Positions 35,867-62,860 are shown, counted from the stretch's first letter. The stretch: 64,000 bases of DNA from a virus (IMGVR_UViG_3300023179_000030:62242-126241), one strand, 5' to 3'. Numbers and translations: made by a program. The notes: generated by a model from the sequence alone, not told the origin.

Positions 35867-36721
35867 GTGGCACAAAAAATCTTAATCATGGGGTTACCCG
35901 GGGCGGGCAAGACCTTTTTAGCAACGGCTTTGAAATCTTACCTAGAGGAAAACTCCAGTGTTAGCACTATGCCAGCAAATCGCCTGGCTAATTATGAAAG
36001 TATGCCCAGATCTTATTCGTCAAAGGTAGATTGGTTTAATGCCGACGACATACGACAACGTTTTAATGATTGGGATTTTAGCAAAGATGGTAGAATTCGT
36101 CAAAGTTTAAGAATGGCTGAGTTTGCATTAAAGTGCACTGGTGATTATGTGATCTGTGATTTTGTAGCACCACTAGTTGAGATGCGTGATAATTTTAAAG
36201 CAGACTGGACAATCTGGGTTGATACCTTGGATGCAGGTAGATTCGAAGATACTAATCGAATTTTTGTACCTCCCACTGACTACGACTTCAGAGTAACCGA
36301 ACAAGAGGCAGAAAAATGGGCAGCTTTTATTGGTGATCACATATTGCATCAACGGCGCCGACCAATATTTGAATGGAAACGTGAAAGTGCGTTACTATTG
36401 GGAAGATTTCAGCCCTGGCACACTGGTCATCGTGCGTTATTTGAAAGAGCACTCAGCAAAACAGGACAGGTGATTATTCAAATACGTGACTGTCAAGGTT
36501 GGAATGGGTCTAATCCTTTTGAGCTAGAGCAAGTAAAGAACTTTATACGACGTGATTTGGATCCTCAATATCAAGGCACTTACGAAATTCAAGTGGTGCC
36601 CAATATTACAGAAATTGTCTACGGTAGAGATGTCGGCTACAAGATAACTCAAGAAGTATTTTCCGACGAGATTCATGCAATCAGCGCCACAAACATTAGA
36701 AAATCACTGGGTTTGCAATGA
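35867..36721 (+). CDS. APS-kinase-like P-loop kinase fused to HxGH nucleotidyltransferase
   Basis: GLPGAGKT, NADDIR and DFVAP, then LGRFQPWHTGH...ISATNIR. Confidence 0.75.
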   Translation: MAQKILIMGLPGAGKTFLATALKSYLEENSSVSTMPANRLANYESMPRSYSSKVDWFNADDIRQRFNDWDFSKDGRIRQSLRMAEFALKCTGDYVICDFVAPLVEMRDNFKADWTIWVDTLDAGRFEDTNRIFVPPTDYDFRVTEQEAEKWAAFIGDHILHQRRRPIFEWKRESALLLGRFQPWHTGHRALFERALSKTGQVIIQIRDCQGWNGSNPFELEQVKNFIRRDLDPQYQGTYEIQVVPNITEIVYGRDVGYKITQEVFSDEIHAISATNIRKSLGLQ

Positions 36722-37158
36722 TTAAACCTAGATTTAGAGAATATTACATGGATATTGCAGATAGAACTGCACTATTGAGTCGAGCTCGTCGATTGCAAGT
36801 GGGCTGCGTTATAGTCAAAGATGATAGAATTATCAGTGTTGGCTACAATGGCACTCCCAGCGGCTGGGACAACAATTGTGAGTTTGAATATCTGAATCCA
36901 GAAACAAATGTAGTAGAACTAGTGACCAAACCAGAAGTCTTACACGCAGAAATGAATGCATTAATGAAGTTAGCGAGAAGCGTTGAGTCAGGAGAATCCG
37001 CAAGCTTGTTTGTTACTCATGCTCCTTGCATGAACTGTGCAAAAAGCATATATCAAAGCGGAATTAAAGAAGTGTTTTATCGACAAACTTATAAAGATTC
37101 ACAGGGAACAGAATTCCTAATTAAATGCGGGATTAAAATTGAGAGTTTATCTATATAG
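36718..37158 (+). CDS. dCMP deaminase
   Basis: VGC...GYNG, HAEMNA and PCMNC motifs. Confidence 0.9.
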   Translation: MIKPRFREYYMDIADRTALLSRARRLQVGCVIVKDDRIISVGYNGTPSGWDNNCEFEYLNPETNVVELVTKPEVLHAEMNALMKLARSVESGESASLFVTHAPCMNCAKSIYQSGIKEVFYRQTYKDSQGTEFLIKCGIKIESLSI

Positions 37159-37390
37159 GCTTTTTCAGTTCATATAATATGCTTGTGTCTTCATCGAAAT
37201 CCGCCACTATGCTTACTTTGGTCATCATACTATCAAGATGAGTTGATGTGTGATAACTCACTGATTTGGCATTGTCTTTGACCCACATACCGAAATCCTC
37301 CAGCAGCCAACTATGATGTTTAGTAAAATGCAATTCAATACCTGACACGACTTCAGGGGCAATCAAAAACTCGTAGACAACTTTTTTCAT
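37151..37390 (-). CDS. Hypothetical protein
   Basis: ATG immediately after the thyA stop. Confidence 0.5.
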   Translation of the reverse strand: MKKVVYEFLIAPEVVSGIELHFTKHHSWLLEDFGMWVKDNAKSVSYHTSTHLDSMMTKVSIVADFDEDTSILYELKKPI

Positions 37391-37391
37391 A

Positions 37392-38291
37392 TTAAACAGC
37401 CATGGGTGCCGATATAGCGGAATGTGACTGATAGTCAATGAGTTTTATGTCATCCATGGTGAACTTAGTAATGTCTTTAATATCGGGATTAAGCCAAAGT
37501 TTTGGCCTAGGCAGTGGCTGTCGTGCTAGTTGCTCTTTGGCCTGTGTAATGTGGTTATTATATAAATGTGCATCACCTATAGTGTGAATAAAGTCACCAA
37601 CTTTTAGGTTGCACACTTGCGCGATCATGTGTGTTAGTAATGAATAGCTGGCAATATTAAACGGAATCCCCAATAAGAAATCTCCGCTGCGTTGATACAT
37701 TTGGCAACTTAATTCATCATTGGCGACATAAAATTGAGCAAAGGAGTGGCAGGGTGGGAGCGCCATTTCTTTTAAATCAGCGACGTTCCAAGTATTAATA
37801 ATATGTCGTCGTCCCTCAGGGTCTCGTTTAATGCCATTGATAATTTCTATTAGTTGATCAATTTCATCTTTTTCAGCCAAGACCTCAACCACATTGTTTC
37901 CACTGTGGCCCAACTCCTTTTTCTCAATATATCGTCTCCAGTGGCGCCATTGTACGCCATAGACTCGACCCAAATCGCCTGGAAATTTAGCTTGTCCTTT
38001 CCAATATGGGGCTTGAGCATTTTCAGTCCATACAGTTTTTTTACCAGTATCCCTGGTACCATGCAATATTTCAGACAAACGTCTTTCATCACCTGAACCT
38101 TCAATCATCCACAATAATTCACTTACCACAGCGCGCCAGGCCAACTTTTTAGTGGTAACTGCTGGAAACTCAGAACGCAAATTATAACGAGTTTGCATAC
38201 CAAATACACTTAGTGTACCTGTACCAGTTCTATCTCCCTTGGCGATTCCATGGGTAAGCACGTAGTTTAGATCTTCAAGATACTGCTTCAT
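37392..38291 (-). CDS. thyA: Thymidylate synthase
   Basis: DRTGTG, RRHII, LPPCH, YQRSGD..LGIPFN and GDAHLY motifs. Confidence 0.95.
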   Translation of the reverse strand: MKQYLEDLNYVLTHGIAKGDRTGTGTLSVFGMQTRYNLRSEFPAVTTKKLAWRAVVSELLWMIEGSGDERRLSEILHGTRDTGKKTVWTENAQAPYWKGQAKFPGDLGRVYGVQWRHWRRYIEKKELGHSGNNVVEVLAEKDEIDQLIEIINGIKRDPEGRRHIINTWNVADLKEMALPPCHSFAQFYVANDELSCQMYQRSGDFLLGIPFNIASYSLLTHMIAQVCNLKVGDFIHTIGDAHLYNNHITQAKEQLARQPLPRPKLWLNPDIKDITKFTMDDIKLIDYQSHSAISAPMAV

Positions 38292-38294
38292 TTA

Positions 38295-38801
38295 TTATTT
38301 AGATTTAAAAATGTCAATGTTTTTGTATACGAGCCAGCTGCATTTACGGTCTGAGCTGGTAGCTGCACTTTTTGTTTGAAATACAGACAAATAATTTCTC
38401 AAATCAATTTGAGTATCTGTTCTATATTGACCTTTGAAATGTGTAATGTGTACCTCGTCAACCAAAGATCTAGTTTCCATTAGTAGTTTGGGACCTCCAA
38501 TTATCCATATTGTTTGATTGGGATGATCCTGTTCTATTTTCTTCAATCTATCTGCAATGTCACCTCGTATTGTGGTGACATTATATCCAAAAAGTGGTCG
38601 AGTGGTGGCAACATAATTAATGCGCCCTGGCAGGGGCTTGGGGAACTTGGGATCGTCCCAGGTCCTCCTACCCATTACTACTATACCGCCCAAAGTCTGC
38701 GATTTGAAGTATTGCAAATCTTCACTGTGGCTGGGCCAAGGAAGCCCACCCTTATATCCCATGCCGCCCCAAACATCACAGGCAAATATCGCCTTAATCA
38801 T
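38295..38801 (-). CDS. folA: Dihydrofolate reductase
   Basis: GLPW..EDLQYFK, VVMGRRTW, PLPGR and IIGG motifs. Confidence 0.92.
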   Translation of the reverse strand: MIKAIFACDVWGGMGYKGGLPWPSHSEDLQYFKSQTLGGIVVMGRRTWDDPKFPKPLPGRINYVATTRPLFGYNVTTIRGDIADRLKKIEQDHPNQTIWIIGGPKLLMETRSLVDEVHITHFKGQYRTDTQIDLRNYLSVFQTKSAATSSDRKCSWLVYKNIDIFKSK

Positions 38802-48927: not shown

Positions 48928-49824
48928 TTATGTTCCCCAGGCGTTTTTCCAAAGGTCGACGTGCAGTCTAGCGCTATACCGTAGCCCATGTTCTAGGGCA
49001 AGTTCTGCTACATGTTTGGCATTCATAAAATAAGTATCACTGGTCCCACCCACAGGCATCAAGTATACTGGCCCTTGAAATCCGGCTTGACGATATTCGT
49101 CAATGGCCTTTAAAGCTTCATTGGCGTCAGATTCTGTAGCTACCACAAATTTAAGATAAGTGTGGCCCACGAATTCATAAGATTTAACTATCTCAGGGCA
49201 AATAGCATCCGACCATTTTTCACCGCTGACGCTTAATTTTGGACTCACTGAAAAGGCCAAAGCATCTCGACCACGTGCAGACCCACGGTTGCTGTACTTT
49301 GAATTTAAAGTCCAATTAAGCAAGTATTGTTGAAAATCTGCGGATAACGGTTGTGTGCCATTGGTTTCAAATGTTAATTCTTTGAGCCAGGACATGTCTT
49401 CGTTGGACAGTAGGTCAGGATATGCTCGTTGCCAACCCAACAGTGGCTCACCACCAGTGATTACCAAATGCTCATCTTCCCAGCGTCGATGAGGCAAAAG
49501 ATTGATTATGTTAGTGGTTAGTTCATCTGTGGTTTCTTTGATTACAAATCGTTTAAACTCAGGGTAAACTGAACTATAGCTATCACAACCTGTGGCCACC
49601 AAAGGTAAATCTTTAAATGTTTTGTATTGGTCTAAATTCTTAATGATAACTGCTACTTCAGGGTTGTGAACTTCTTGATCACTGAGAATATCCTGTTCTA
49701 GACGACCAAAATTTTTGCATCGAAAATTGCATCCAAACATACGTAGGAATATTGAAGGGACACCCATAAAACGCCCTTCGCCCTGAGTGCTGTAAAACAG
49801 CTCTGTATAATTGACATTAGCCAT
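48928..49824 (-). CDS. queE: 7-carboxy-7-deazaguanine synthase (radical SAM)
   Basis: ELFYSTQGEG, LRMFGCNFRC...GCDS, ITGGEP, ETNG, SPKL and RLH motifs. Confidence 0.9.
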   Translation of the reverse strand: MANVNYTELFYSTQGEGRFMGVPSIFLRMFGCNFRCKNFGRLEQDILSDQEVHNPEVAVIIKNLDQYKTFKDLPLVATGCDSYSSVYPEFKRFVIKETTDELTTNIINLLPHRRWEDEHLVITGGEPLLGWQRAYPDLLSNEDMSWLKELTFETNGTQPLSADFQQYLLNWTLNSKYSNRGSARGRDALAFSVSPKLSVSGEKWSDAICPEIVKSYEFVGHTYLKFVVATESDANEALKAIDEYRQAGFQGPVYLMPVGGTSDTYFMNAKHVAELALEHGLRYSARLHVDLWKNAWGT

Positions 49825-49853
49825 GATTCTAAAATCCTAATTGATTGTTGTTG

Positions 49854-50126
49854 TTACCAATGGTGAATAACTCCTGCGATGATAAACAGGTTTGTAACTA
49901 TGTATACTAACACAATCGTGCTTCGAATACAAGCTATTTGGTTTGCTTCCAGATTATCTTTGCCAGATTTCTCGCCCAAAGCCAGTGCCCATAAACGCCA
50001 CAGTTTAGACATAGATGAATTCTTTTTAATATTGATGGGTATATCTGTAATTATCACTGGTGCTGTATATCCATCCCAAAGTGGAATAGATAACAAAATT
50101 GTTTCCTGACTAACTGTTTTTTCCAT
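49854..50126 (-). CDS. Small membrane protein (start uncertain)
   Basis: LWRLWALALGEK...TNLFIIAGVIHHW. Confidence 0.5.
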   Translation of the reverse strand: MEKTVSQETILLSIPLWDGYTAPVIITDIPINIKKNSSMSKLWRLWALALGEKSGKDNLEANQIACIRSTIVLVYIVTNLFIIAGVIHHW

Positions 50127-50307
50127 CTCTTATTTGTTCTTGAGATGTTTTTAATTCACTGTGACATTTGCAAAATATTTTAATACTCATTAGATATCGA
50201 AGATATTTATAAAAATCAATGACATTGATATAGGCATTAATTATTAAAATTACAGGTATTAGCCACACCCAGTGGAGACCAAAATTTGGATACATAATAA
50301 AACTCAA
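50110..50307 (-). CDS. Small hydrophobic hypothetical protein
   Basis: Fills the gap on the coding strand. Confidence 0.35.
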   Translation of the reverse strand: MSFIMYPNFGLHWVWLIPVILIINAYINVIDFYKYLRYLMSIKIFCKCHSELKTSQEQIRDGKNS

Positions 50308-50319
50308 TTATTTAAAAAG

Positions 50320-50823
50320 TTAATCAAAAAGCGACTCGTTCCAGCATCTATGGCCTTCTCTGAAAGCCATATTATTTTGAGTTTCGCGCACTTCGACCCT
50401 ATAGCACCATAGACGTTCTGCTTCACTCTGTCCCCACATGTCAGGAATATAAACACCATTGACATACTTATACAGCATGTCGGCAAGACTTTCGCAACCT
50501 AAATTGGGAAGAATAGTTAATTTCAAGATTCCACGGCGTTCTGCTTCTTTATACCAGTCTAAATGTGGGTCCGACTCAGCTACCAATGTTGTATGATCAA
50601 ATTGACTTTCAAGTGTTTGTTTTAACTCACTCAACCCACCGTAATCTGCGGCCCACCTACGTGCATCTAAGTCGTCTGTTCCAAAATAAAATTTCATACT
50701 AAATGCATATCCGTGTAGAAATTTACAATGACTGTTGGCTTTGTATTGCCTATAAGCGCAAGGAAAAGCGTCGTGATATTCCTTGGTGGAAGTCCATTTG
50801 TATGTTACAGGTTGTAATGCCAT
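50320..50823 (-). CDS. queD: 6-carboxytetrahydropterin synthase
   Basis: HCKFLHGY, FDH, GCESLA and VRET motifs. Confidence 0.85.
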   Translation of the reverse strand: MALQPVTYKWTSTKEYHDAFPCAYRQYKANSHCKFLHGYAFSMKFYFGTDDLDARRWAADYGGLSELKQTLESQFDHTTLVAESDPHLDWYKEAERRGILKLTILPNLGCESLADMLYKYVNGVYIPDMWGQSEAERLWCYRVEVRETQNNMAFREGHRCWNESLFD

Positions 50824-50828
50824 ATTTT

Positions 50829-50887
50829 TCTCCTATGATTAGCATAGGCGGCGGAGTTTATTAAGCGGGACGGCGCCAAGACCGCTG
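50829..50887 (-). ncRNA. preQ1-I-like riboswitch candidate with SD-sequestering hairpin
   Basis: AGCGG-[TCTTGGCGCCGTC]-CCGCT-TAATAAACT-CCGCC pseudoknot, then CCTATG-CTAAT-CATAGG overlapping the AGGAG of queD. Confidence 0.6.
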
Positions 50888-50893
50888 TATTAT

Positions 50894-51220
50894 TTATGAT
50901 TCTTCTAAGATACTATTGATTTCTTTGACATAGCTGCCAGTTATTTTATGCCCAGCAATAAAAACAAATAGCAAAGCTTCGTCATCGTTGGGGAAGAATA
51001 TTCTAGCTGAACCTGGACGTCCAGGTCTTTGAGCCGCATTGTGGTGAACTGGTTTACATCCTGGAAAATGTATCGCGTTAAAAACCAGTTTATCTCGATT
51101 TGTTCCTTCAAAATCTATTGCACCACGCGACCTCAAATAGTCGTCGATTTCTCGATCATATTCACAAACATCAACAACCGAAGTACCCACCAAAGAATTA
51201 TTAGTTTTTAATCTAGCCAC
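50894..51220 (-). CDS. Hypothetical protein
   Basis: Co-oriented and overlapping its neighbour. Confidence 0.5.
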   Translation of the reverse strand: MARLKTNNSLVGTSVVDVCEYDREIDDYLRSRGAIDFEGTNRDKLVFNAIHFPGCKPVHHNAAQRPGRPGSARIFFPNDDEALLFVFIAGHKITGSYVKEINSILEES

Positions 51221-51494
51221 GCAACATCTCCATGTTTATAATATTGCCAATATTTTGAGCGATGTCGTCGTCATCATGTAATACATAGACGTTTTCTTTG
51301 GATTCGTCACGATTTCGGTCATAACGTCTAATAGATAATACTACTCCGCCCTGAGCCACTGTAACAGAAAAATTAAATGATTCCCGAATCTCTGGGCCTT
51401 TTGAAAGAGTTGTTATTTTGCCAGGTCTAGTTGAATTTAGAATTGGGCCATCATTAAATAACCAATCCCTAAGCCAGTTTTTAAATCGTTTCAT
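51213..51494 (-). CDS. Hypothetical protein
   Basis: Directly after folE. Confidence 0.6.
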   Translation of the reverse strand: MKRFKNWLRDWLFNDGPILNSTRPGKITTLSKGPEIRESFNFSVTVAQGGVVLSIRRYDRNRDESKENVYVLHDDDDIAQNIGNIINMEMLRG

Positions 51495-51496
51495 AA

Positions 51497-52192
51497 TTAG
51501 TTACCACTGTGGCCTTTCATAGTACTAAGCAGGGTATAAAACTCCGCCTTCAATGGTGGATGTGTATCAAATGCTCCCAACATAATAGCAGTAGACATAT
51601 CACTATTGTGTTCCCTAACCCCGCGCTGTGACATGCAGTGATGCTCTGCCTTTAAAACCACTGCAATGTTGTCGGTTTTGGCATACTTCCTCAGAGCTTC
51701 TGCAATTTGTGTAGTCATTTCCTCTTGAATCTGAGGACGCTCACATATATGATGCACAATGCGATTAAACTTGCTGAGACCAATAACTTCATCTTCTGGT
51801 ACTATGCCAACCCAGCAGTTACCCACAATGTTTTGAAAGTGGTGAGCACAAGTGGATCTTATGCTAATGGGTCCAGTGGTATATAAGCTTTTATAACCCA
51901 AGTTAGGAAAAGCTGTTACTTTGGGAACTGGTCTATATCGACCTGCAAATGTTTCTTTGATATACATTTTAGCCACCCGCCTGGCAGTGTCATTGGTATT
52001 GTGATCGTTGGCTGTGTCAATAATTAAACTAGTTAATACCCCCTGAAATTGCTCGGCAACTTCATCAACTAACAGATCTATTTCACCATCATTGATAAAG
52101 TCTGCAATGTTGTCATTGCTGTTAAACCTAGCACCAGCTAGTTGTATTCGTTCACGTATCACTTGTGACAGTGGTTTGCTGTTGTCTTTCAT
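51497..52192 (-). CDS. folE: GTP cyclohydrolase I
   Basis: TARRVAKMY, STCAHHF, GLSKFNR, PQIQE and HHCMSQRG motifs. Confidence 0.95.
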   Translation of the reverse strand: MKDNSKPLSQVIRERIQLAGARFNSNDNIADFINDGEIDLLVDEVAEQFQGVLTSLIIDTANDHNTNDTARRVAKMYIKETFAGRYRPVPKVTAFPNLGYKSLYTTGPISIRSTCAHHFQNIVGNCWVGIVPEDEVIGLSKFNRIVHHICERPQIQEEMTTQIAEALRKYAKTDNIAVVLKAEHHCMSQRGVREHNSDMSTAIMLGAFDTHPPLKAEFYTLLSTMKGHSGN

Positions 52193-52240
52193 GTTTTTCC
52201 TAATTGATAATATGTATTTAGAACGTTAATTATAGCAAAA

Positions 52241-52450
52241 TTATTTTGTAAATTTAAGAGCTTTGAGCACCAAGTATTCTGAAAACAGTTGAGCTAATTC
52301 TGAGTCATCACCATTTAGAATATAGTCACTGGCGGCATAATTTCTAAGATCAAGCAAATTAACATCATTGAGACTGGGGTATTTGGGCCCAACTATGTCT
52401 TTCCAAAGTTGAAGTCTTTCCAAATATTCCACATCTTTATCATTGGTCAC
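52241..52450 (-). CDS. Hypothetical protein
   Basis: Overlaps the glycosyltransferase stop. Confidence 0.45.
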   Translation of the reverse strand: MTNDKDVEYLERLQLWKDIVGPKYPSLNDVNLLDLRNYAASDYILNGDDSELAQLFSEYLVLKALKFTK

Positions 52451-53535
52451 TGTTGTAGCCTTTTAATTAGTTCTTGGGCACTAAAGAAATACTCGCTTAA
52501 ATCCTCCGCTTGCTCACGGATTGTGGGAATTCTAGAAGTATAATTAACCATATGTTCTATAAGCTTACGGCATAGGTCAGGTCTATAAACAGTATAAGTA
52601 TCATAACTTTCAGTCCATACACTGGGATATTTAAATCCTTCATAATACATTTCACTGTATGAGAGTCGATCCGGAACCATGGGGATAGCATCTACTAACG
52701 CGCCTTCGTAACATCCTATTCCTAAAGTTTCCTGTAGACTTGCACTAAACACAATCTTTGCTTGACCTAGCAACGTATGATATTCGTGTTTAGATAAATT
52801 TTGATCCTGGCAAACAACGAATTCATATTGAGGTAATTGTTTAGCTAGATCACGGAAGATTTCAACTTGCTTTTCTGGCGCAATACGATGCGGAAACAAA
52901 ATAAGGTCACGCTTGGGAATAGTGCAATAGTTCGCCAATGTTTCTTTCATATACTCCATGGGCCAGCCTGTCTTGACAATATTATGCGCTCGATGATTAG
53001 CAGATCGCATTTCTTGTGGCCAACCTAACAAGTTTTTACCAAACATCTGAATATGAAAGTCTGTGGCAAAGTAGTTATAATCAAATGCATGATAGAAACT
53101 CTTTTCAGCATGCCGTACCCAAGGTTTAGCGCCGACTAATCGACCTAGGAAATCTTGAGGATCATAGCTGCCGGCATGCCATAACCCGTGCAATGTCCAG
53201 TTGAATCCCAGCAAATCCTTCATATATTTGAGTTGAATAATGGTGGGATTCCAAGCGTCTGTAAAAAGTATGTGATCGTCGGTAGAAGTCTCGCCTCTAT
53301 TGTGATGTTCTAAAAAATTACATAACTGCGAACTTTTCCAATAGTTAGTATCCGAAAAGTTTAGGAACGCACCAGGAGTAAGTTGCGAGTCCTTTTGGAC
53401 TCCATCAATCTGTACTACATTAAACTTTACCCCTACATTCTTATTAAGAAGTTTTGGAATGTGTTCATGCCATTGTGCTGTATATCTGGTCTCAATCGGC
53501 TCAAGGCTAAAGATCCAAATTGTGGGTTTATTCAT
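52447..53535 (-). CDS. GT-B (GT4-like) glycosyltransferase
   Basis: FPHRIAPEK, QETLGIGCYEG (E-x7-E) and VPDRLSYSEMY motifs. Confidence 0.8.
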   Translation of the reverse strand: MNKPTIWIFSLEPIETRYTAQWHEHIPKLLNKNVGVKFNVVQIDGVQKDSQLTPGAFLNFSDTNYWKSSQLCNFLEHHNRGETSTDDHILFTDAWNPTIIQLKYMKDLLGFNWTLHGLWHAGSYDPQDFLGRLVGAKPWVRHAEKSFYHAFDYNYFATDFHIQMFGKNLLGWPQEMRSANHRAHNIVKTGWPMEYMKETLANYCTIPKRDLILFPHRIAPEKQVEIFRDLAKQLPQYEFVVCQDQNLSKHEYHTLLGQAKIVFSASLQETLGIGCYEGALVDAIPMVPDRLSYSEMYYEGFKYPSVWTESYDTYTVYRPDLCRKLIEHMVNYTSRIPTIREQAEDLSEYFFSAQELIKRLQQ

Positions 53536-53590
53536 ATGTGTGATTTGATGATTAAACTCTTAGTGGTTAAATGAAAAAGCCATAACTAAA

Positions 53591-53794
53591 TCATTGTGCT
53601 TCAGTCTCTGCTCGGCGGCTCATCCAATTTTTGTATTTTTCAAATTTGCGATATTGCTCACTGCGATACAAATCCTTTACGTCAAATTTCAACATGTAAA
53701 GGGCGCAATAATCTCTGTAATCTTCGAGATCTTGAAAGATACGCTCAACTTCTGGTTTCATACGCAAATACTTTTTAGTCCACTCTTGTGCCAT
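53591..53794 (-). CDS. Hypothetical protein
   Basis: TAAGGAG SD. Confidence 0.6.
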   Translation of the reverse strand: MAQEWTKKYLRMKPEVERIFQDLEDYRDYCALYMLKFDVKDLYRSEQYRKFEKYKNWMSRRAETEAQ

Positions 53795-53822
53795 GATAAC
53801 TCCTTAATAAGACACGGTTGAT

Positions 53823-54251
53823 TTAAACTGCAATAGAACGAGCGTGGCGATATCGATTATACTCAATTAAACACCCGCACTCACCATCTTCACTGACATT
53901 GATTTTCATTGAACGATCTGGATATTTGGCAGCTAGTGCCAAATATAAACCATCTGCCATCATTTCTACACTTTTGTAGTCAATTTCCAATTGTCGATCC
54001 TGATATAGGGATTCGCAATAGTTTAGTACCTGATGAAACTCCAACTCACGGTCATTATGAAATATTTCAATATGTACTGAAAATTTAAATAAATGCCTAT
54101 GACGCTCACCTAAATAGGATACATCAGCTAATTTTGGATCAGTGGCTGCTGCTGGATACTTGTGAAACCCGGGCCTTTGGAAAGTGACCCAAATGTATCT
54201 AGGTGCTGCTGCCATAATACGTTGAATTTTATCTCGTTGTTCTTGATTCAT
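53823..54251 (-). CDS. Second QueD-like T-fold protein (DpdL-like?)
   Basis: GFHKYP...HRHLF...DRELEF...SVEMMA...VSEDGE. Start MNQEQ at 54251. Confidence 0.6.
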   Translation of the reverse strand: MNQEQRDKIQRIMAAAPRYIWVTFQRPGFHKYPAAATDPKLADVSYLGERHRHLFKFSVHIEIFHNDRELEFHQVLNYCESLYQDRQLEIDYKSVEMMADGLYLALAAKYPDRSMKINVSEDGECGCLIEYNRYRHARSIAV

Positions 54252-54261
54252 TGTTGTTAAT

Positions 54262-55153
54262 TTACCAGTAAATAAAACCTCTACTATAGTTTGGAGGACG
54301 ACTTCTACCATCCAGAAAAGCTTGTTGCCATTCTGTGTTTCTATTGTACGCTTTAGACCAAAAGCTGTCAACTTGCATTTGTCCGTTTTTTACCCAATAT
54401 GCAGCATCATTCATTGCCAAGAAAAACTTATCAGTGCGTGGGCTAGGAAAAACCATGGTGCAAGCTTTCCAAAGCAAATTGGCAAAATCGGTTTTAACTT
54501 GCTTCTGAGAACCAAATATAACCAAACCCTCTGTTTGCATAATATCCTGTTCAAAAACATCTAACCTGCTGCTGAGATCCAAGACCACGTCAAATTTGCC
54601 GCTATGGCTCTGAACCAAAATGTCACCCCAAAGATTTTTATTGCTATTTCCCAACACTGTTATTTCAAACTCCAACTTGTTGAGTAATACTGTATGATAT
54701 GCTACCCAAGCAAGAAATCCACTGCCCAAGATAAGCATTCGTCGACCTGGTCCAGATCTCTTGATATATTCACCAATAGACTGATGTACAAGGTTTATAC
54801 CACAGGCCACAGGCTCCAATATATATCTAGGATGAGCTTCAGGGACTATCACATATTCTCGATGTTTTACAACATAGCGATCTGCGTAGGCTGGTTCTCC
54901 CCTAGTAGCAACTAAGTTACCGACCTCGACATCTTTGACTGCTGAACCCAGACTCAACACCTTACCCAAACCCTCATGACCTTGCATATGCAAAGGCAAT
55001 GGGCCAAACATACCACACATCATGTCAATGTCACTGCGGCAAACCCCAGTCATTACACTTTGAACCAAAATTTCATCTGCGCCCAGCTTTGGTATTTCAA
55101 ATGTGGTTTCCACAAATTTACCACCACCCTGAGTCATCAAAATTCTATTTACA
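54262..55153 (-). CDS. Zn-dependent medium-chain (polyol/sugar) dehydrogenase
   Basis: GVCRSD, GHEGLG, EPVAC and ILGSGF Rossmann motif. Start approximate. Confidence 0.8.
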
Positions 55154-56030
55154 TTCGTTCCAGCTGCTGATGTATCCATATATCTTGATCAAATTGATTT
55201 TTCCAAAAATCAGCATTGTTCTGCTGATCGATAGCTGTCTGTATCATTTTATTATACGCGGATTCCGGGCATAACCCCAGCTCAAATCTAATTGCACTGT
55301 TGCCCAGATCAAAGCTAATACTAGCGTCATCTTGTCTATTATTTTTCCAGTTTGCTTCCAATATCCAACGAGTTTTTCCAACAACAAAGGATAAGTTTGC
55401 ATAATCATCTACATTATATACTCCATTATGGTCGATGACTCCGTAGTCTGTGCTAGTTATATCAGGCAAAGTAAAATTTTGCATTACTACACTGGTAGTT
55501 TGAAGACTCGTGTAATCAGTGAATGCAGTGACATAACTCAACAAGTGAGGCATTAGATCGCGGCTAACACCTCCAAACGACAGATATTTATTAGTAAACC
55601 AGCTGCCGGGATTGGGTATTCTGTTTTTATTATTCCAACGTAAATATACATTATTAGATTGCTGGGCTAGATCTTTAAATTTTTCTATTTCAGTTCGGTA
55701 TTGATTATTTTTAACCATCATAAACCGAGTTTTTGGGAAATCATCATGTAATGCTTGCCAGTGAGTGGCAGTTCTTACACCGGGTTTTTCCACAAAGATA
55801 ATATCAGTTTGAGCTGCCAGAGACCTAGCAATTGATTCATGTGTATAGTTTGGTGTGCAAATATTAACAGTTCCAAAATGCTGGTGCTCTGCCAGTGCAT
55901 CATTGATATGCTTAAAATCAGCTGGGCGAACGGGATCAACGGTGATTACTTGACGACCCTGATCTTCCAGCACAGACTTGTAGACTGCTTGACCAAATCC
56001 CATACCTACTATTAGACTTTTATTATTCAT
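55149..56030 (-). CDS. Gfo/Idh/MocA-family NAD(P) oxidoreductase
   Basis: IVGMGFG, ICTPNYTH, FVEKP and GGVSRDLMPH motifs. Confidence 0.85.
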   Translation of the reverse strand: MNNKSLIVGMGFGQAVYKSVLEDQGRQVITVDPVRPADFKHINDALAEHQHFGTVNICTPNYTHESIARSLAAQTDIIFVEKPGVRTATHWQALHDDFPKTRFMMVKNNQYRTEIEKFKDLAQQSNNVYLRWNNKNRIPNPGSWFTNKYLSFGGVSRDLMPHLLSYVTAFTDYTSLQTTSVVMQNFTLPDITSTDYGVIDHNGVYNVDDYANLSFVVGKTRWILEANWKNNRQDDASISFDLGNSAIRFELGLCPESAYNKMIQTAIDQQNNADFWKNQFDQDIWIHQQLERM

Positions 56031-57687
56031 CGGCGTTCAATGATTCAAGCTTTCTTTCATCTAACTCAGTGGAATCTTTGGGATCGTCTTCATCCACTTC
56101 TTCAAATAAGACTCTAAATTGACTGTGAGAATTAACAGATTTTTTGCCACTGAGCCCACGGGTACCAGTTATTCCCATCCAAAATTTGCTGTGTTCCTCA
56201 ATGATGTCCAAACTTTTTTGTTTATCACTGGTTTCGAATATAGCATTAATGATGTCCCTAAATAAAACTCGGTCAAAGGTCTCGCGTATTAACATGCCAG
56301 GAATAGAAGTACCAGATTCATATAGCCTATTGGCTTCTTGAACTGCTTCAATATGAGCCCAGATATTGTGACCCATTTGTATTGCATAACTAAAACTATC
56401 CCAACTTGTGGCGCCCACTTTGCCTATTTTATTTTTATCCCCCAGTGTCAACCAATATTTGGGATCGTTTAACAGTAACGGGTCTTTGAATAATTTAACA
56501 TGATCTATTCCGTCAGCGTTGACCTTGTTCCAGTCAGGGGTCCCTGCACCGTATATGCAGATGTCCTTCATTTGTGTACGCTTACTTATTGGGCTGGCCA
56601 TGAGTTCTTTAAGAATTTTATCTTGTAAAATAGCTTCACGCCAATTTCTAGTATCCAGTGAGTAACGTCGATCATCAGCACCAGATGTCATTCTATAAGT
56701 CCAATTACCTCGATCCTTGTATTCATTGTGATGATAAATCATACCATTGGCTGTGGCTAAAAAGGCACTGGCGGCATCAAAACTAGCGGTCCAATTTTCA
56801 TTATGATTTTTTCTAATGGCATTTTGTATGTCGGTTAACATGCATGCCCATTCTAATTTAGCCACTCCCAAGAAGTGCATCCAATCGTGTATTCCTTTTT
56901 CTAATAGACCATCGTGTCTGAGTTCCACCAGTCTGCGTAATATCAAGTGAATTTCACTCATATTATTGCCCCCCATGGCCCAGCCATTAAAATGTTCATT
57001 GGGATATTGTTTGGGGTCGCAGAACTTCTTTACGTGGCTATACCAATCGTCGGCTTCACGGAAATTACTGCCTTGTAGTACATTCAAAAATTTGGCATCA
57101 CCATTGCGATTACGAATAAAGTATTCATTATTATACAATGTGGTGTTAATACAATCGGCATAGGTTTTTATCCCTACTTTTTTACCTGCTTCTTTGTCGT
57201 GTGTTACCCAAGTTGGAACATCCAAAGTCATAGCATAGTCACTGATGCCATCCAGCCATTTTAACACACTGGCTCTGCGTTTTTCGCTTTTTACATCTGT
57301 GGGGTCAGCCCAGTTTCCCTCCCAGACTCCCTTGGCAATTTGGAATCCTCCACTGTCTCCCAAGATCATGGTGTTTTTCCTATCGCGATTTCTAATCATG
57401 TCCTCTGATGGATCTGGAATAGATAAGTCCAAATTAGCATGACCTGCGCTGTAGAGACTCCACTTATAGGTAAAATATCCTTGATCGGCATTTAGATAAT
57501 TTAACCCTTCTACTCCGTGTTCAAAACTTACAGGTAAACGTGCGGGGTCTACATAGTTCTCAACTCGTTGTTTGCCAATGAAGGTAGAATAAAACCCGCT
57601 AAGTGCCGGTAAGAAAACAGCATAACGAGATTTGCCATCAGCGGCTAGTTGCTTGGCAGTTAGATTGTCGCGATCCATACTGATCAC
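56023..57687 (-). CDS. tRNA-guanine-transglycosylase-fold protein (DpdA-like DNA base-exchange enzyme)
   Basis: LGDSGGFQ, MTLDVP, NVLQG, GWAMGG, MHFLGV and SFDAAS in TGT order. Sits beside folE/queD/queE and the replisome. Confidence 0.75.
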   Translation of the reverse strand: MISMDRDNLTAKQLAADGKSRYAVFLPALSGFYSTFIGKQRVENYVDPARLPVSFEHGVEGLNYLNADQGYFTYKWSLYSAGHANLDLSIPDPSEDMIRNRDRKNTMILGDSGGFQIAKGVWEGNWADPTDVKSEKRRASVLKWLDGISDYAMTLDVPTWVTHDKEAGKKVGIKTYADCINTTLYNNEYFIRNRNGDAKFLNVLQGSNFREADDWYSHVKKFCDPKQYPNEHFNGWAMGGNNMSEIHLILRRLVELRHDGLLEKGIHDWMHFLGVAKLEWACMLTDIQNAIRKNHNENWTASFDAASAFLATANGMIYHHNEYKDRGNWTYRMTSGADDRRYSLDTRNWREAILQDKILKELMASPISKRTQMKDICIYGAGTPDWNKVNADGIDHVKLFKDPLLLNDPKYWLTLGDKNKIGKVGATSWDSFSYAIQMGHNIWAHIEAVQEANRLYESGTSIPGMLIRETFDRVLFRDIINAIFETSDKQKSLDIIEEHSKFWMGITGTRGLSGKKSVNSHSQFRVLFEEVDEDDPKDSTELDERKLESLNADE

Positions 57688-58427
57688 TTGGTCTGAGCCG
57701 GCAAGATGTAATTGTACAGGGCCATTCCGCTATCCACTGTAATCATTGCTGCCCCTTCATCGCTGATTTTAAAAGTTTTGTCTCCGGGTAAACTTAGAAT
57801 ACTTAGCACTGCTGTCACAGGCCAAGCCCAAGCCTTGGATAATGTTCCAGTAACACCTGCTTGGAACACAAAGTTACCCGCATGGCTGCTGTGATCGCCG
57901 AAGAAAAACTTTAGATCGCCATTTTCAGTTTTAGCAACAAACGTGCTTTCTTCACTGTTGGCGCTGGCCTGAAATTTTAAACGTTGAATGCTGGCTGCGC
58001 TGGGTACAATGTCTACATTCCAATTTACATTTTTGAACTTGATTGTTTTCAATTTGTCATTGACGATTTCAGAGCTCATAAACCTGTAATCGTTTTTAAA
58101 GTCTCCAACTTTGTTTTCAAAGTGAATGCCCACTGGTACATTTTCATCATTTTTAATCTGAGTTACAACTTTGAGTTTCGCTCCTTCCTTGTACTCTGAT
58201 ATGTTCAAAATTGTATTAAGTTTGCCTAGGTTTGGCATACCAAAAACTCCAATGAGGTTGCTGATAATGCCATTGAATTTGGCCTGAACAATAACAGATC
58301 TGTCTTCCGCTAGTGCCGAAAGCTGTGTATCAACTTCAGTGCCTGTGACCTTTACTAAATCAATAAAGCCAAGTCCATGTGTGTGTTGAACGATGTCGCG
58401 TAGAACATCTTGAAGGTTATCTACCAT
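57684..58427 (-). CDS. gp45: Sliding clamp (gp45-like)
   Basis: About 247 aa next to PolB. FGMPNLGKL, YRFM, ISDEGA and YILPA end. Confidence 0.7.
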   Translation of the reverse strand: MVDNLQDVLRDIVQHTHGLGFIDLVKVTGTEVDTQLSALAEDRSVIVQAKFNGIISNLIGVFGMPNLGKLNTILNISEYKEGAKLKVVTQIKNDENVPVGIHFENKVGDFKNDYRFMSSEIVNDKLKTIKFKNVNWNVDIVPSAASIQRLKFQASANSEESTFVAKTENGDLKFFFGDHSSHAGNFVFQAGVTGTLSKAWAWPVTAVLSILSLPGDKTFKISDEGAAMITVDSGMALYNYILPAQTK

Positions 58428-58530: not shown

Positions 58531-61500
58531 TTATTCAAATGTAAAAAGAGAGTTAAAAGTGGAATCAATGTCAGTGTTCTCTGTAATGTGCCAGTTGAGT
58601 ACCCCCAAGAGGTTCTCGACCTTTTGATCCACGATACCAGCTTCCATCAATGAATCATCGAATGGAAGATCCCTAAACCAACTTGGAATACGAGTTTCGT
58701 CAGTGGGGTATCCCACACTGGTATAGCCCATGGGGTTATTTTTTAACTTACATACTATGGTTTTCATGCCATCTACGATTGCCAAACTGTGATTGTCACC
58801 GTGTAATCTCCTAAGATTATTCCAATTCATGGCAGCTCTGACATGACCTGGCATAGAGGCGCGGCCTTTTACATGTTCTGTTTCTGTGTAATTTGTTAAG
58901 TTATTAACCCGTTTTGGTGTTCCTTTTTCCCAGGGTTTTTTATCCTGAAATTTAATTTTAAACTCTCGAACTTTGGCAATGATCTCATCGCGTTGAGCAC
59001 CAGTGAGTACGTCTAGTAAAATCTCACTGAGAAAATCTTGGACTACTTTGGGAGTGTCGCTGCGTTTCAAGTCCAAACCCATGGCCTTGACTTTTCCTGG
59101 TTTACCATTGACATCCAACCGCTTACCTTCTTTGTCAATAATAATTGCAGCATAGCGTTTCTTTTTAATAAACAATCCCTTGCTGGCAACCAGTTCCCTA
59201 CCGCCTCGGATTATTTCACCCATACTGCGAGGGCAATGAAACGCACGTTCCATAAATCCAGGAAAACTGGCATTTACTTGGTCTGCAATGTTATCGTAGA
59301 CTTGAATGCAAGTTTCTTTGTCCCAGGGCATTGTGCCAGCCGCAACCTCAGATTTGACTACAGGCCACGCACTGAAATAGACCGAGTCTGTATTATGTAA
59401 AAGTATATCATTTCCAAAGAAAAATGGGTCTTGTTTATCTATACTGATATCATAAACATAATCATCTATTTCCCCAATACATACTACACTTTTTACCGTT
59501 GTGCGTTCAACATCTATTTTGTCACCTTTTGAATGACATAAACAAATAATTAGATCATTGTCTAAAATTTCAGTTGGTTTAACTTCTATTAGAAAACCAT
59601 CTCTATCGACCATTACACTATGATCTTCAGTTACTTTGACTATTTTTCCGTTTTCTAGTGTTATTTCATAAATATTCTTTTTAGTTTTATGACGCATAAC
59701 ATAAGTAATTTCACTCATCACCGGAGAATCTTCAAACGCATTAAACCCAATTACTTTAGCAAAGGAGTGTGTGCCATATTCTTTGCCTTCTATAATGGAA
59801 TGATGTTGACATTGATTAAATAACTCCTTGATAGTTATTTCTCCTGAGTCGGTTTTAATTTTTGTGTCCTCAGTAACGCTGTCACCATAAATAATTGACT
59901 CTCCTCGATGGTCAGCATTTCCAGTTATGATATCGTTAACTGTGGCAGACATATGCTTGGCTATGGCTCTACCAGTTAACGTAGTTGATTGACCAATTCT
60001 TATGTCTGAAAATCTACAACCTGGATTCAAAATTGCACCATACAGTGAATTCAAATTAATTTTTTTCACCAATTGCCTTTTGTCCCAGTATTCTATATCT
60101 TCAGCATTGCCCGCGGCCTGAGCTTCTTTGAGTTTCTTTTGTAGATCTTTACGTTCAGAATACCAACGAGCCAATAAACCTGGTATTATACCAGGTTTTT
60201 CATAACTAAAAATGGTCCCATTAGCGCTGAGTATCCAGGGTTTACCACTGTTAAATATTATGTTCCAGACTTCGTTGGCAGTAACCGATGAGCTAGTACC
60301 ATCTGCTTCCCAGTCAATGGTTAAATTTAGTCTGTTATCACCGTTCATAACGGCTTCATACTCCAAACTACCAAACAACCCCTCCCAAGCACCAGAAAAT
60401 GTTTCACCTGCCAGCATTTTGTCGGAGATGTATTTTTCGGTATGGTCTTGTCTCAATTGCCCAATGATTGTTTCAGGCCCCATGTTGAGGGCGCGTATGG
60501 TTGATGGGTACAGGCTGTTGATGTCGATTGCTCCGATCCATTCATGCATTCCCTTTTTGGGAGTAGCAACATAGGCACCTGCCGCATGTGTTTCGTCTTC
60601 GTCTCGGCCTTTTCTATCAGGAACGACCAATCCTTTGCTGTGTGCTTCATTTATAATTGCCTGCTCCGTGGTTTGTACTACTCCCATTGTTGTGGGCAAC
60701 AACACAGTATTGTCGTGTGCAATGGTGTTGACTAAATCTAAAAAACGGAGCTTTCTATCTAGCTTTGCCAACAAACGAGTATCTTGCCTATTGTATTCAA
60801 GGAATTTTTCAAAGTCCCTGTTGTACAATTGATCCAATGTTCCTTCATAGGGCACTTTATGTTCATTTAATTCATATTCACCTATGGCATCCAAACTATA
60901 ACTATGCCGTTCCTCATAATTATATTTTCTATAGAGTTGCATGTAGTCTAAGTGAATCCTACCTATTAGGTCATAGGTGATATTCTTAGCGCCAAAACGT
61001 TCAAACTCTCTAGCTTTGGGATATTGGTCCCACAAGCATAAGCGTCTAGTATCATCTTTGCTGAGCACTCTAACAATTCTACCCACTGTATAGGGTATAT
61101 CATAGGTTTCTGAATTCCAACCACTGATGACATCGGCATCATCAATTAAATTTAGAAAGGAATCCAACATATCTTCTTCACGCTCAAAGATGTAACAATC
61201 TTCGAACTTTGAGCATATCTCCAGGGCGGTTTCCCAACTTATTGTTTTGGGTGGCAAAGCCAATGTCACCAGTCTGTCTAACCAGTCTAGATACACAGAT
61301 ATGGCAGTTATATTATTAAAGGGGTCGCTGGCAGGCGCAAATCCTCGTGAAGGGTGAAAATTTGATTCAATGTCGAAAAAAGCAGTATGCAGTTTGGGAG
61401 TATCGGCATTTAAATAATTTGTTTCAAGACATCGGTTTACTGGTTTGATGTCGCTTTCCCAAATTTGTGTTCCGCTATGCATGCGTTTTTCTTTTTGGAA

Positions 61501-61689
61501 CTCTTTACCACTGCGTGTAGTAAACTTAGTAACGGGGGTATCAAAGATGGTTCTATGCTTTCCTTTTGGATCAGAATAATAAAAAACATAATTGGCAGGG
61601 TATTCTTGATATACCCTCAAGCCATTGACACGTTCAACGACATGAACTATATCTGTTTGTTTGTCTAATAAAGCATCAATATAACTAAT
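58531..61689 (-). CDS. gp43: Family B DNA polymerase with mini-intein (ATT start)
   Basis: FDIE exonuclease, DINSLYP, KINLNSLYG, YGD|intein|TDS and KKRYA. The frame extends to AGGAG-7nt-ATT at 61689 (MSYIDA...). Confidence 0.93.
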   Translation of the reverse strand: MSYIDALLDKQTDIVHVVERVNGLRVYQEYPANYVFYYSDPKGKHRTIFDTPVTKFTTRSGKEFQKEKRMHSGTQIWESDIKPVNRCLETNYLNADTPKLHTAFFDIESNFHPSRGFAPASDPFNNITAISVYLDWLDRLVTLALPPKTISWETALEICSKFEDCYIFEREEDMLDSFLNLIDDADVISGWNSETYDIPYTVGRIVRVLSKDDTRRLCLWDQYPKAREFERFGAKNITYDLIGRIHLDYMQLYRKYNYEERHSYSLDAIGEYELNEHKVPYEGTLDQLYNRDFEKFLEYNRQDTRLLAKLDRKLRFLDLVNTIAHDNTVLLPTTMGVVQTTEQAIINEAHSKGLVVPDRKGRDEDETHAAGAYVATPKKGMHEWIGAIDINSLYPSTIRALNMGPETIIGQLRQDHTEKYISDKMLAGETFSGAWEGLFGSLEYEAVMNGDNRLNLTIDWEADGTSSSVTANEVWNIIFNSGKPWILSANGTIFSYEKPGIIPGLLARWYSERKDLQKKLKEAQAAGNAEDIEYWDKRQLVKKINLNSLYGAILNPGCRFSDIRIGQSTTLTGRAIAKHMSATVNDIITGNADHRGESIIYGDSVTEDTKIKTDSGEITIKELFNQCQHHSIIEGKEYGTHSFAKVIGFNAFEDSPVMSEITYVMRHKTKKNIYEITLENGKIVKVTEDHSVMVDRDGFLIEVKPTEILDNDLIICLCHSKGDKIDVERTTVKSVVCIGEIDDYVYDISIDKQDPFFFGNDILLHNTDSVYFSAWPVVKSEVAAGTMPWDKETCIQVYDNIADQVNASFPGFMERAFHCPRSMGEIIRGGRELVASKGLFIKKKRYAAIIIDKEGKRLDVNGKPGKVKAMGLDLKRSDTPKVVQDFLSEILLDVLTGAQRDEIIAKVREFKIKFQDKKPWEKGTPKRVNNLTNYTETEHVKGRASMPGHVRAAMNWNNLRRLHGDNHSLAIVDGMKTIVCKLKNNPMGYTSVGYPTDETRIPSWFRDLPFDDSLMEAGIVDQKVENLLGVLNWHITENTDIDSTFNSLFTFE
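59392..59880 (-). mobile_element. Contiguous mini-intein (163 aa) in PolB YGD|TDS
   Basis: Ser1 (SVTEDT), VTEDH, VYDI, terminal LLHN then Thr. No endonuclease domain. Confidence 0.9.
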
Positions 61690-62422: not shown

Positions 62423-62860
62423 TTATCTGGTGCTTGCCCTAAGCATCCAGCTGTGTTTTCTATGAGCGTCCATTCTATCAGCTAAAAAGTTACATAACCC
62501 ATATTCTCCTGCTGACTCAGAAAGATCATAGACTAATTTAAGTATTTTGACCGTTTTGTCGCTGTCAGACAGTAATTCTTCTATCATCATTGACACTGGT
62601 GGGACTTGGGTTTCGTCCTGGATCTCAGTGAGCATGCTTAATCGTGTAAAACTGCCGGGAGTATAACTTCCCAATTTGCGAATGTTTTCGGCAAAATCGT
62701 CGATACTACCGTAGACTTCTTCATAAATTTTGCCAAATAGTTCGTGGTATTCAGCAAAGTCTGGGCCCTCCACATTCCAATGATAGAAAGCAGATTTTAA
62801 ATAGAATGAAAATTCTGTAGAGAATGCAATTTTCATTGCTTTAATTAGTTCATCGTTCAT
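62423..62860 (-). CDS. dps: Dps/ferritin-like protein
   Basis: HWNVEGPDF..HELF, DDFAENIR and HRKHSWML motifs. Confidence 0.9.
   Translation of the reverse strand: MNDELIKAMKIAFSTEFSFYLKSAFYHWNVEGPDFAEYHELFGKIYEEVYGSIDDFAENIRKLGSYTPGSFTRLSMLTEIQDETQVPPVSMMIEELLSDSDKTVKILKLVYDLSESAGEYGLCNFLADRMDAHRKHSWMLRASTR

Follow-up and report, generated by a model that had tools for sequence, protein, structure and literature searches.

A predicted 7-deazaguanine DNA modification module with an embedded glycosyltransferase gene in a jumbo phage related to PA5oct

FolE, QueD and QueE together convert GTP to 7-carboxy-7-deazaguanine (CDG) in an established pathway. To our knowledge, all eight 7-deazaguanine bases described in DNA carry small side groups only, and sugars on DNA are known only from pyrimidines, namely hydroxymethylcytosine, hydroxymethyluracil and hydroxycytosine. 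We analyzed a stretch of 64,000 nucleotides from an IMG/VR virus record (IMGVR_UViG_3300023179_000030:62242-126241; hereafter the window), in which genes for CDG synthesis lie in one run with those for a DpdA-like transglycosylase, a DpdL-like protein and a glycosyltransferase (GT). The run is best explained as a module by which a PA5oct-like jumbo phage would replace guanine in its DNA with a deazaguanine that also receives a sugar, and to this reading as a whole we give a probability of roughly 0.48.

In Cellulophaga phage phiST, a DpdL/DpdA3 system places 2'-deoxy-7-deazaguanosine (dDG) in the position of all dG (PMC10516641). The motif LxxxHRHxF, which replaces the CxxxHGH signature of cellular QueD, defines DpdL, and the published proposal is that DpdL decarboxylates CDG to 7-deazaguanine (PMC10516641). 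In the row for Pseudomonas phage PA5oct, Supplementary Data S1 of the same work lists QCG76197.1 as DpdA3 and QCG76199.1 as DpdL (PMC10516641; Cui, Hutinet et al., NAR 2023). Iyer et al. 2021 also describe a deazaguanine synthesis and incorporation system in PA5oct, and a 2025 preprint reports PA5oct DNA to be resistant to five restriction enzymes, which was interpreted as modified G in GA and/or GG.

Like phiST, the window encodes FolE, a QueD with the signature CxxxHGY, QueE, a DpdL with LxxxHRHxF and a distant DpdA of the tRNA-guanine transglycosylase (TGT) fold, and QueC is absent. Unlike the window, phiST lacks the GT and dehydrogenase genes, has a MazG-like gene and encodes a DpdA3 of 259 aa as against 554 aa. 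PA5oct (Wroclawvirus) is syntenic with the window in PolB, a 247-aa protein, DpdA3, GT, DpdL, QueE and an exonuclease, with identities of 38% for DpdA, 45% for the GT and 43% for DpdL; it differs in that the GT gene precedes that of DpdL, the Gfo/MDR dehydrogenase pair is missing from the locus, and FolE and QueD are encoded elsewhere. In Acidovorax phage ACP17, a GT (38.5% identity) and a DpdL (62.5%) are adjacent within the order QueD, FolE, DpdA, GT, DpdL, QueE, whereas the transglycosylase belongs to another subfamily, DpdA2. An earlier note on this DNA had recognized neither the QueD paralog as DpdL nor the core as a described system; FolE, QueD, QueE, DpdL and DpdA3 without QueC are the published type predicted for dDG (PMC10516641). 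New relative to the literature searched are the embedded GT with variable sugar genes and the Gfo/MDR variant.

The deazaguanine core

The source record (126,241 bases, rated about 36% complete) belongs to a T4-like jumbo phage with a Gp23 capsid protein, a Gp20 portal protein and T4 baseplate proteins, which is distantly related to PA5oct. On its minus strand, from 61620 down to 47420, lies one tightly packed gene run in the order PolB with an intein, 247-aa protein, 554-aa protein, Gfo/Idh/MocA dehydrogenase, Zn-type MDR dehydrogenase, small T-fold protein, 67-aa protein, 362-aa protein, 69-aa open reading frame (ORF), FolE, two small ORFs, QueD, 90-aa ORF, QueE, 147-aa protein and 5'-3' exonuclease (Table 1). 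The earlier note had placed a co-oriented run of the enzyme genes at 48928-57687, and all of those it named are found there, with the TGT and GT folds recovered by structure models.

The QueD signature CxxxHGY is common to all 10 phage QueDs that we aligned, phiST included. The NCBIfam models of QueE match the window protein down to 3.7e-12, below their cut-offs. Pfam scans of 97 ORFs (19 + 78) of the 126-kb record returned no QueC, QueF, ArcS or canonical TGT domain, and searches of the whole record, at its completeness of about 36%, returned no QueC and no TGT, which agrees with the earlier statement that queC, queF and arcS are missing from the window. QueC was also absent from a 372-kb relative rated 100% complete (G001) and from PA5oct. 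In this the locus departs from the canonical preQ0- and archaeosine-type phage systems (QueC, QueF, Gat-QueC, ArcS): no QueC was found in the incomplete record, in G001 or in PA5oct, and no QueC-derived domain in the 97 ORFs scanned. Because QueC is missing, the route would bypass preQ0. Vibrio phage 2.275.O carries a homolog of the 554-aa protein without GT and DpdL, but with QueC and QueF.

Judged by its motif and profile, the small T-fold protein, a paralog of QueD, is a member of the DpdL family. Its signature residues L47, H51, R52, H53 and F55 (numbered on the 142-aa form) do not vary among 36 homologs, and its profile matches phiST DpdL (CGPG_00067) at 3.4e-21 over the full length. The ORF is open to a TTG at 54371 (53823-54371); the true start is likely the ATG at 54251, giving 142 aa, because the homologs are 120-170 aa long and start near there, and with this start the large overlap with the MDR gene vanishes. 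Pfam PTPS matched neither the window protein nor any of the 36 homologs scanned singly, and the 182-aa form and its profile found nothing meaningful among PDB sequences. A profile search of 1.84 billion representatives returned 3181 relatives, and PTPS scored above its cut-off in four of 35 remote ones. DpdL here co-occurs with FolE, QueD, QueE and DpdA in the absence of QueC from this partial record, and complete relatives are likewise without QueC. By analogy with the published proposal, it would decarboxylate CDG.

Fusions of DpdL were observed in metagenomes. A LmbE/PIG-L-type deacetylase domain (A-P-H-x-D-D-E) precedes a C-terminal DpdL in 12 of 14 long DpdL proteins aligned (P0258, P0263, P0285, P0346, P0348, P0349, P0370, P0375, P0376, P0378, P0380 and P0390), and single fusions to a YhhQ/Vut_1 transporter domain, to dUTPase and to a PAPS-reductase-like domain were seen. 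When viral contigs were searched for relatives of one PIG-L-DpdL fusion, just one locus was returned, in which only the DpdL part matched, and an alignment-based scan with DpdL returned mostly stand-alone genes.

The 554-aa protein had no Pfam, PHROG or NCBIfam match, and neither the protein nor its profile found anything meaningful among PDB sequences. An AlphaFold2 model was built from 30 homologs, with a predicted local distance difference test score (pLDDT) of 85.2. Foldseek matched this model to tRNA-guanine transglycosylases at E values of about 1e-6 (probability 1.0) and to the DNA preQ0 insertase DpdA 7ui4 at 5.2e-6, and VIA aligned 302 residues to the Thermotoga maritima TGT (2ash_A) with a Z score of 20.0 and a root-mean-square deviation of 4.3. 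D111-S-G-G-F-Q, D156, Q205-G, G239-G240 and D304 are invariant in the 30 homologs; the motifs of D111, D156 and D304 resemble what we take to be the catalytic motifs of TGT, a likeness of motifs and not a residue-level superposition. The profile reaches PA5oct QCG76197.1, to which the protein is 38% identical, at 3.5e-112. As the model suggests, this DpdA-like protein would swap guanine in DNA for a deazapurine.

A transglycosylase of this fold might instead modify phage or host tRNA, since the fold is common with the tRNA-guanine transglycosylases, which are the best structural matches. We find this hardly credible: the gene stands in a replication block beside the polymerase in 73 of 83 loci, PA5oct bears a homolog and has DNA that is restriction-resistant at G-containing sites (2025 preprint), and the authors of the family placed the PA5oct homolog among the DNA enzymes as DpdA3.

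The first part of the proposed pathway can be drawn from these genes. FolE, QueD and QueE would make CDG from GTP; DpdL would process CDG, by decarboxylation to 7-deazaguanine according to the published proposal, so that preQ0 is bypassed; and the DpdA3-like transglycosylase would exchange guanine in DNA for the deazapurine after replication. We infer this last step because of the fold, the conserved aspartates and the restriction resistance of PA5oct DNA. By homology to the described system, the three steps together appear highly probable.

A glycosyltransferase gene beside DpdL

The 362-aa protein is a predicted GT-B glycosyltransferase of the GT4-like, retaining type. Its structure model (pLDDT 70.5) is good in the C-terminal domain and poor in the N-terminal one. 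The best VIA match has a Z score of 15.1 (7qsg_B), and scores of 13-15 link the model to TarM, HepE, PglA, BshA, PimA, GlgM and BGluT; the top matches of both Foldseek and VIA are all GT4-type enzymes. E269-x7-E277, R217 and K222 are invariant in 30 homologs. The E-x7-E motif and the basic phosphate-binding residues are presumably the hallmarks of the GT4 donor site, and the enzyme looks active from these residues. The protein and its profile found nothing meaningful among PDB sequences, and divergent relatives reach Glycos_transf_1 at 1.1e-4 and 9.4e-3, below the cut-off. At least 8000 homologs exist (all 8000 scored passed E 0.001), the best 120 being 68-79% identical when the protein's own record is excepted; the DpdA-like and GT marker proteins each have more than 7000 metagenome homologs.

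The tetrahydrobiopterin glucosyltransferase BGluT is among the structural matches of the GT (5zes, Z 13.5; 5zer, Z 13.3), and FolE and PTPS-fold enzymes also start pterin synthesis. One could therefore imagine a pterin glycoside unrelated to DNA as the product of FolE, a PTPS-type enzyme, the reductases and a BGluT-like GT. This appears very improbable to us, as BGluT matches no better than many GT4 enzymes, the T-fold paralog has the signature of DpdL and not that of PTPS, and QueE and the DpdA-fold transglycosylase are conserved in the same run; of the 34 loci with 9.9 kb of downstream sequence, 32 have FolE and 25 have QueE.

Phage DNA GTs that act on 5-hydroxymethylcytosine, such as the T4 alpha- and beta-GT, are similar in that a GT-B enzyme lies in a DNA-modification cluster with variable tailoring genes, an arrangement in line with a function against restriction (bioRxiv 10.1101/2023.12.21.572611). 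They differ in that they decorate the hydroxymethyl group of a pyrimidine, and the 50 best structural matches of the window GT include no T4 enzyme. The window phage also departs from hydroxymethylcytosine systems: its thymidylate synthase looks ordinary (6.7e-103), and nothing points to a cytosine pathway. Cytosine or thymine as the target of the GT was set aside, as ThyA, DHFR and dCMP deaminase look ordinary.

In PA5oct, the homolog of the window GT (45% identity) is QCG76198.1, whose gene lies between those of DpdA3 and DpdL. This protein is mentioned neither in the main text nor in the supplement of PMC10516641, where "glycosyl" occurs 0 times in the main text and in the supplement only under chemical synthesis. 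The word "guanine" is absent from the text of bioRxiv 10.1101/2023.12.21.572611. No glycosylated deazaguanine in DNA is described in the literature searched, the supplements of Iyer et al. 2021 lying outside that search.

Two sets of loci were compared, namely the best 80 of the 591 related viral loci to which the DpdA-like profile led, and 80 loci sampled via the DpdL domain, of which 35 have 3.5 kb on both sides. Among related loci with at least 6 kb downstream, tblastn found DpdL in 41 of 41 and the GT in 39 of 41, so that the joint occurrence of GT, transglycosylase and QueD paralog which the earlier note had proposed to look for in relatives is indeed seen. In the two other loci, DpdL and a small protein are followed by a gene for a 398-aa protein with weak Glycos_transf_1 similarity, which the GT profile detects, and then by an SDR epimerase/dehydratase, a B12 radical SAM enzyme and a DegT aminotransferase. 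A GT or a divergent GT4-like gene thus stands at DpdL in all 41 testable related loci.

In the second set, a GT lies within 3.5 kb of DpdL in 27 of the 35 loci. Four of these 27 are without the jumbo-type DpdA and show the order DpdL-GT-QueD in T4-like contigs, with overlapping stops and starts; in one such contig an epimerase/dehydratase is wedged between GT and QueD. The order also varies among cultured phages: DpdA3-GT-DpdL in PA5oct, DpdA2-GT-DpdL-QueE in ACP17, GT-DpdA-DpdL-QueE in X1, DpdL-GT-x-FolE in Phosso, where the DpdA-like gene is elsewhere, and DpdL-GT in BUCT-ZZ01. It is well supported by these observations that the GT is genetically linked to DpdL across lineages with different DpdA types.

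Among the GT-less loci of the type QueE-QueD-FolE-DpdL, those at L109, L117 and Rhizobium phage RHph_I1_18 (L090) have no recognizable DpdA at the locus, and the gene after DpdL in RHph_I1_18 is annotated as encoding a macro-domain (Appr-1-p processing) protein.

The linkage bears on the question whether the module makes plain dDG as in phiST, with the GT and the dehydrogenases serving a protein, an envelope glycan or another base and merely travelling in the replication block. For this speak the full dDG replacement of phiST without a GT, the eight of 35 DpdL loci that have no GT, a separate large glycan island by which the phage handles sugars for other ends, and the lack of an obvious acceptor group on 7-deazaguanine. 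We consider it unlikely all the same, because the GT keeps its place beside DpdL where gene orders are rearranged and where lineages differ in DpdA type, is in many cases translationally coupled to DpdL and QueD on its two sides, and is distinct from the ordinary, Pfam-recognizable GTs of the phage, which are located elsewhere. A tree of 144 distinct DpdL sequences (99 linked to a GT, 10 not, 35 undecidable) also argues against a chance association: the GT label needs six changes on the tree, shuffled labels need 9.7 on average, and none of 500 shuffles gave so low a number, a contrast that relatedness inflates. The branch of this tree that leads to phiST DpdL is very long.

Sugar-tailoring genes and the proposed product

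Two dehydrogenase genes stand between those of the DpdA-like protein and DpdL. By profile (16 homologs), the Gfo/Idh/MocA protein appears closest to DgpA-type glycoside 3-dehydrogenases, its best solved relatives being DgpA-type enzymes (7xr9, 9m3d) and levoglucosan dehydrogenase (6a3f); the E values are 4.5e-13 for DgpA 7xr9 (positions 43-239 of 295), 1e-7 for a second DgpA (DgpA1) and 2.5e-7 for 6a3f. In this comparison, which was made by profile, it differs from them in that a phage encodes it, that it is shorter by about 70 residues and that an MDR dehydrogenase accompanies it. Known DgpA-type enzymes serve bacterial glycoside breakdown. DgpA-type and levoglucosan dehydrogenases oxidize a hydroxyl (C3) of an already conjugated or anhydro sugar, and this action on existing glycosides fits the remodelling of a transferred sugar and not of a nucleotide sugar. 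The MDR protein matches alcohol, threonine and sorbitol dehydrogenases of the PDB down to 6.3e-8 in its N-terminal part only, and its gene is coupled to that of Gfo by a 31-nt overlap. From these similarities, it could re-reduce the ketone left by Gfo, and both dehydrogenases would act on the sugar moved by the GT.

That the oxidoreductases co-occur with the transglycosylase and que genes, as the earlier note had expected, is borne out only in the form of an optional add-on, since Gfo was found in 11 and MDR in 10 of 80 loci; Gfo always lies between DpdA and DpdL, and MDR always occurs together with Gfo. Other relatives carry variable genes between GT and FolE, among them an SDR epimerase/dehydratase (7 loci), a DegT aminotransferase (14), a UDP-glucose/GDP-mannose dehydrogenase (4), a B12 radical SAM enzyme (7) and a 2-oxoglutarate (2OG) oxygenase. 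Relatives further encode a phosphoribosyltransferase in 39 loci and a HIT-family protein in 27. The window module has none of these variable tailoring genes of its relatives, no phosphoribosyltransferase and no HIT protein, and has the Gfo and MDR pair instead. Phosphoribosyltransferase and HIT genes of relatives stand, for example, at L021 11061-11603 and L023 17325-17702, and in BUCT-ZZ01 (L088 2084-2545) an annotated xanthine-guanine phosphoribosyltransferase lies in the cluster. A cyclitol in place of a sugar was set aside, the sole hint being a weak similarity to IolM/inositol dehydrogenase.

In the second part of the proposed pathway, the GT4-like enzyme would move a sugar from a nucleotide sugar to the deazaguanine, either as the free base or in DNA, and Gfo and MDR would remodel this sugar, most likely by C3 oxidation and re-reduction, that is, epimerization. 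After decarboxylation by DpdL, the sugar might be attached at the electron-rich C7 as a C-glycoside or on a C7 substituent, and it would differ by phage with the tailoring genes, to give amino, deoxy, C-methyl or uronic forms. The base that bears the sugar is probably not CDG, because the QueD paralog is of the DpdL type and the core is that for dDG. Such a product would protect sites with G against the nucleases of the host. The idea of a decorated deazaguanine, already put forward in the earlier note, is upheld in so far as the GT is linked to the transglycosylase and que genes; the sugar on the DNA base itself is our reading of that linkage, plausible at slightly less than even odds. The fusions of DpdL to LmbE/PIG-L sugar deacetylase domains would also be in keeping with a glycosylated base.

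The sugar might instead be transient, placed on a free pterin or deazapurine intermediate to activate, solubilize or protect it, and gone before or at insertion, so that the base in DNA is unglycosylated. This would be in keeping with the published DpdL model, which in the supplement of PMC10516641 fits only the free base, with the fusions of DpdL to small-molecule-type LmbE/PIG-L deacetylases and to the YhhQ/Vut_1 precursor transporter, and with the structural matches MshA, BshA and the pterin glucosyltransferase BGluT, which act on small acceptors. It nevertheless seems distinctly unlikely, for no sugar-removing glycosidase or phosphorylase is seen in the module, and the diversified tailoring genes look like the result of selection on a final, exposed product.

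Several points weigh against a glycosylated deazaguanine in DNA as we propose it. Full replacement by dDG in phiST, with DpdL and without a GT, means that DpdL needs no GT, and eight of the 35 loci of the second set have DpdL without a GT (of the QueE-QueD-FolE-DpdL type, as in RHph_I1_18). Plain 7-deazaguanine has no obvious hydroxyl for a GT4-type enzyme, so that a C-glycoside or another DpdL product must be assumed. The window GT has no Pfam match (Glycos_transf_1 at E 0.01), its acceptor (N-terminal) domain is of low confidence (pLDDT 28-57 over residues 50-200), and no DNA glucosyltransferase is among the 50 best structural matches in either search, with the acceptor domain poorly modelled. 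At E up to 1, the profile of the DpdA-like protein reaches neither phiST DpdA3 (CGPG_00065) nor ACP17 DpdA2. The record is about 36% complete, and QueC may lie elsewhere in the same phage. The loci come from related phages under biased sampling, and for this reason indicate a stable linkage and not independent events.

With these points considered, we regard it as possible at somewhat less than even odds, and with less confidence than the sugar-transfer steps as such, that the virion DNA of the window phage and of PA5oct, ACP17, X1 and Phosso carries a sugar-bearing 7-deazaguanine, which would be the first glycosylated purine in DNA. If true, a deazapurine with a sugar would add a new class to the bases of DNA, and in very abundant aquatic and soil jumbo phages it would confront restriction enzymes, modification-dependent nucleases and sequencing chemistries with a different substrate. 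It would also explain a failed reconstitution in the literature: no dDG was obtained when ACP17 DpdL and DpdA2 were expressed in the absence of the GT, and in the view of the authors other enzymes may be required (PMC10516641).

Neighbouring genes and other features

Table 1 Features of the gene run in the window, in the order of transcription.
Feature	Coordinates	Strand	Evidence
PolB (family B DNA polymerase) with intein	58531..61620	-	DNA_pol_B 2.8e-30; exonuclease domain 7.4e-16; PHROG DNA polymerase 2.2e-180
247-aa conserved protein	57684..58427	-	PHROG 12062, unknown function, 1.6e-31; no Pfam match
DpdA-like DNA-guanine transglycosylase, TGT fold (predicted), 554 aa	56023..57687	-	Structure model
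Gfo/Idh/MocA dehydrogenase, 293 aa	55149..56030	-	GFO_IDH_MocA 6.6e-5, exactly at the 24-bit cut-off
Zn-type MDR dehydrogenase, 305 aa	54262..55179	-	ADH_N 6.6e-11; PHROG Zn alcohol dehydrogenase 2.4e-8
DpdL (QueD-like T-fold, proposed CDG decarboxylase), 142 aa from ATG	53823..54251	-	LxxxHRHxF; phiST DpdL profile match
67-aa conserved protein between DpdL and GT	53591..53794	-	No family match
GT-B (GT4-like, retaining type) glycosyltransferase (predicted), 362 aa	52447..53535	-	Structure model and invariant motif
69-aa ORF, 4-nt overlap with GT stop	52241..52450	-	No family match; no homolog in 83 loci
FolE (GTP cyclohydrolase I)	51497..52192	-	Pfam 7.6e-44; PHROG 4.2e-50
Two small ORFs, 93 and 108 aa	50894..51494	-	No family match; 93-aa homologs in 12 of 83 loci
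QueD (6-carboxy-tetrahydropterin synthase type)	50320..50823	-	PTPS 5.6e-14; PHROG QueD-like 2e-34
90-aa ORF	49854..50126	-	PHROG 1679, unknown function, 1.8e-22
QueE (7-carboxy-7-deazaguanine synthase, radical SAM)	48928..49824	-	PHROG QueE-like 4.1e-49, full length

Several genes of the run overlap, as had been noted before: the 247-aa (clamp-like) and DpdA genes by 4 nt, DpdA and Gfo by 8, Gfo and MDR by 31, GT and the 69-aa ORF by 4, and the 93-aa and 108-aa ORFs by 8. Isoelectric points gave no further information. The run had also been placed downstream of PolB and a clamp. PolB was confirmed, and the clamp label was not, as the 247-aa protein matches only PHROG 12062 and a 26-sequence profile found no solved relative among PDB sequences (best E 0.14). 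In 81 of 83 loci, the gene of this protein lies upstream of that of the DpdA-like protein. Its homologs in PA5oct and Phosso are annotated as virion or structural proteins, the PA5oct one as found in virions by mass spectrometry. The intein of PolB (Intein_splicing 3.3e-13) spans residues 593-743; in PA5oct, the polymerase is annotated instead as two genes with a homing-endonuclease gene between them. By tblastn, 45 of 83 loci have a homolog of the 67-aa protein in the corresponding place, and 54 loci are represented in its cluster. A conserved protein of about 175 aa (e.g. L010 11610-12137), which is absent from the window, is encoded in 72 of 80 loci between the genes of the DpdA-like protein and DpdL. 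A megablast search of the region against cultured phages gave no match.

A large glycan-biosynthesis island lies in the record outside the window (L091 16371-19767 and L092 1764-14761; G000:C1, about 16.4-32.8 kb) and adjoins the gene of a fibre-like protein of 1653 aa that has an S74 chaperone domain. The island encodes two 2OG oxygenases, a GT10-like protein, WcbI, a GDP-mannose 4,6-dehydratase, a DegT aminotransferase, a hexapeptide transferase, two Pfam-recognizable GT4 enzymes, two sulfotransferases, a carbamoyltransferase and FkbM-type methyltransferases. Within the 64-kb window, the stretches 36718-38801 and 62423-62860 hold the dCMP deaminase, the canonical-looking thymidylate synthase and the DHFR cluster, together with a ferritin-like protein near the window end, and a single ORF of 4335 aa occupies 19490-32497 on the plus strand.

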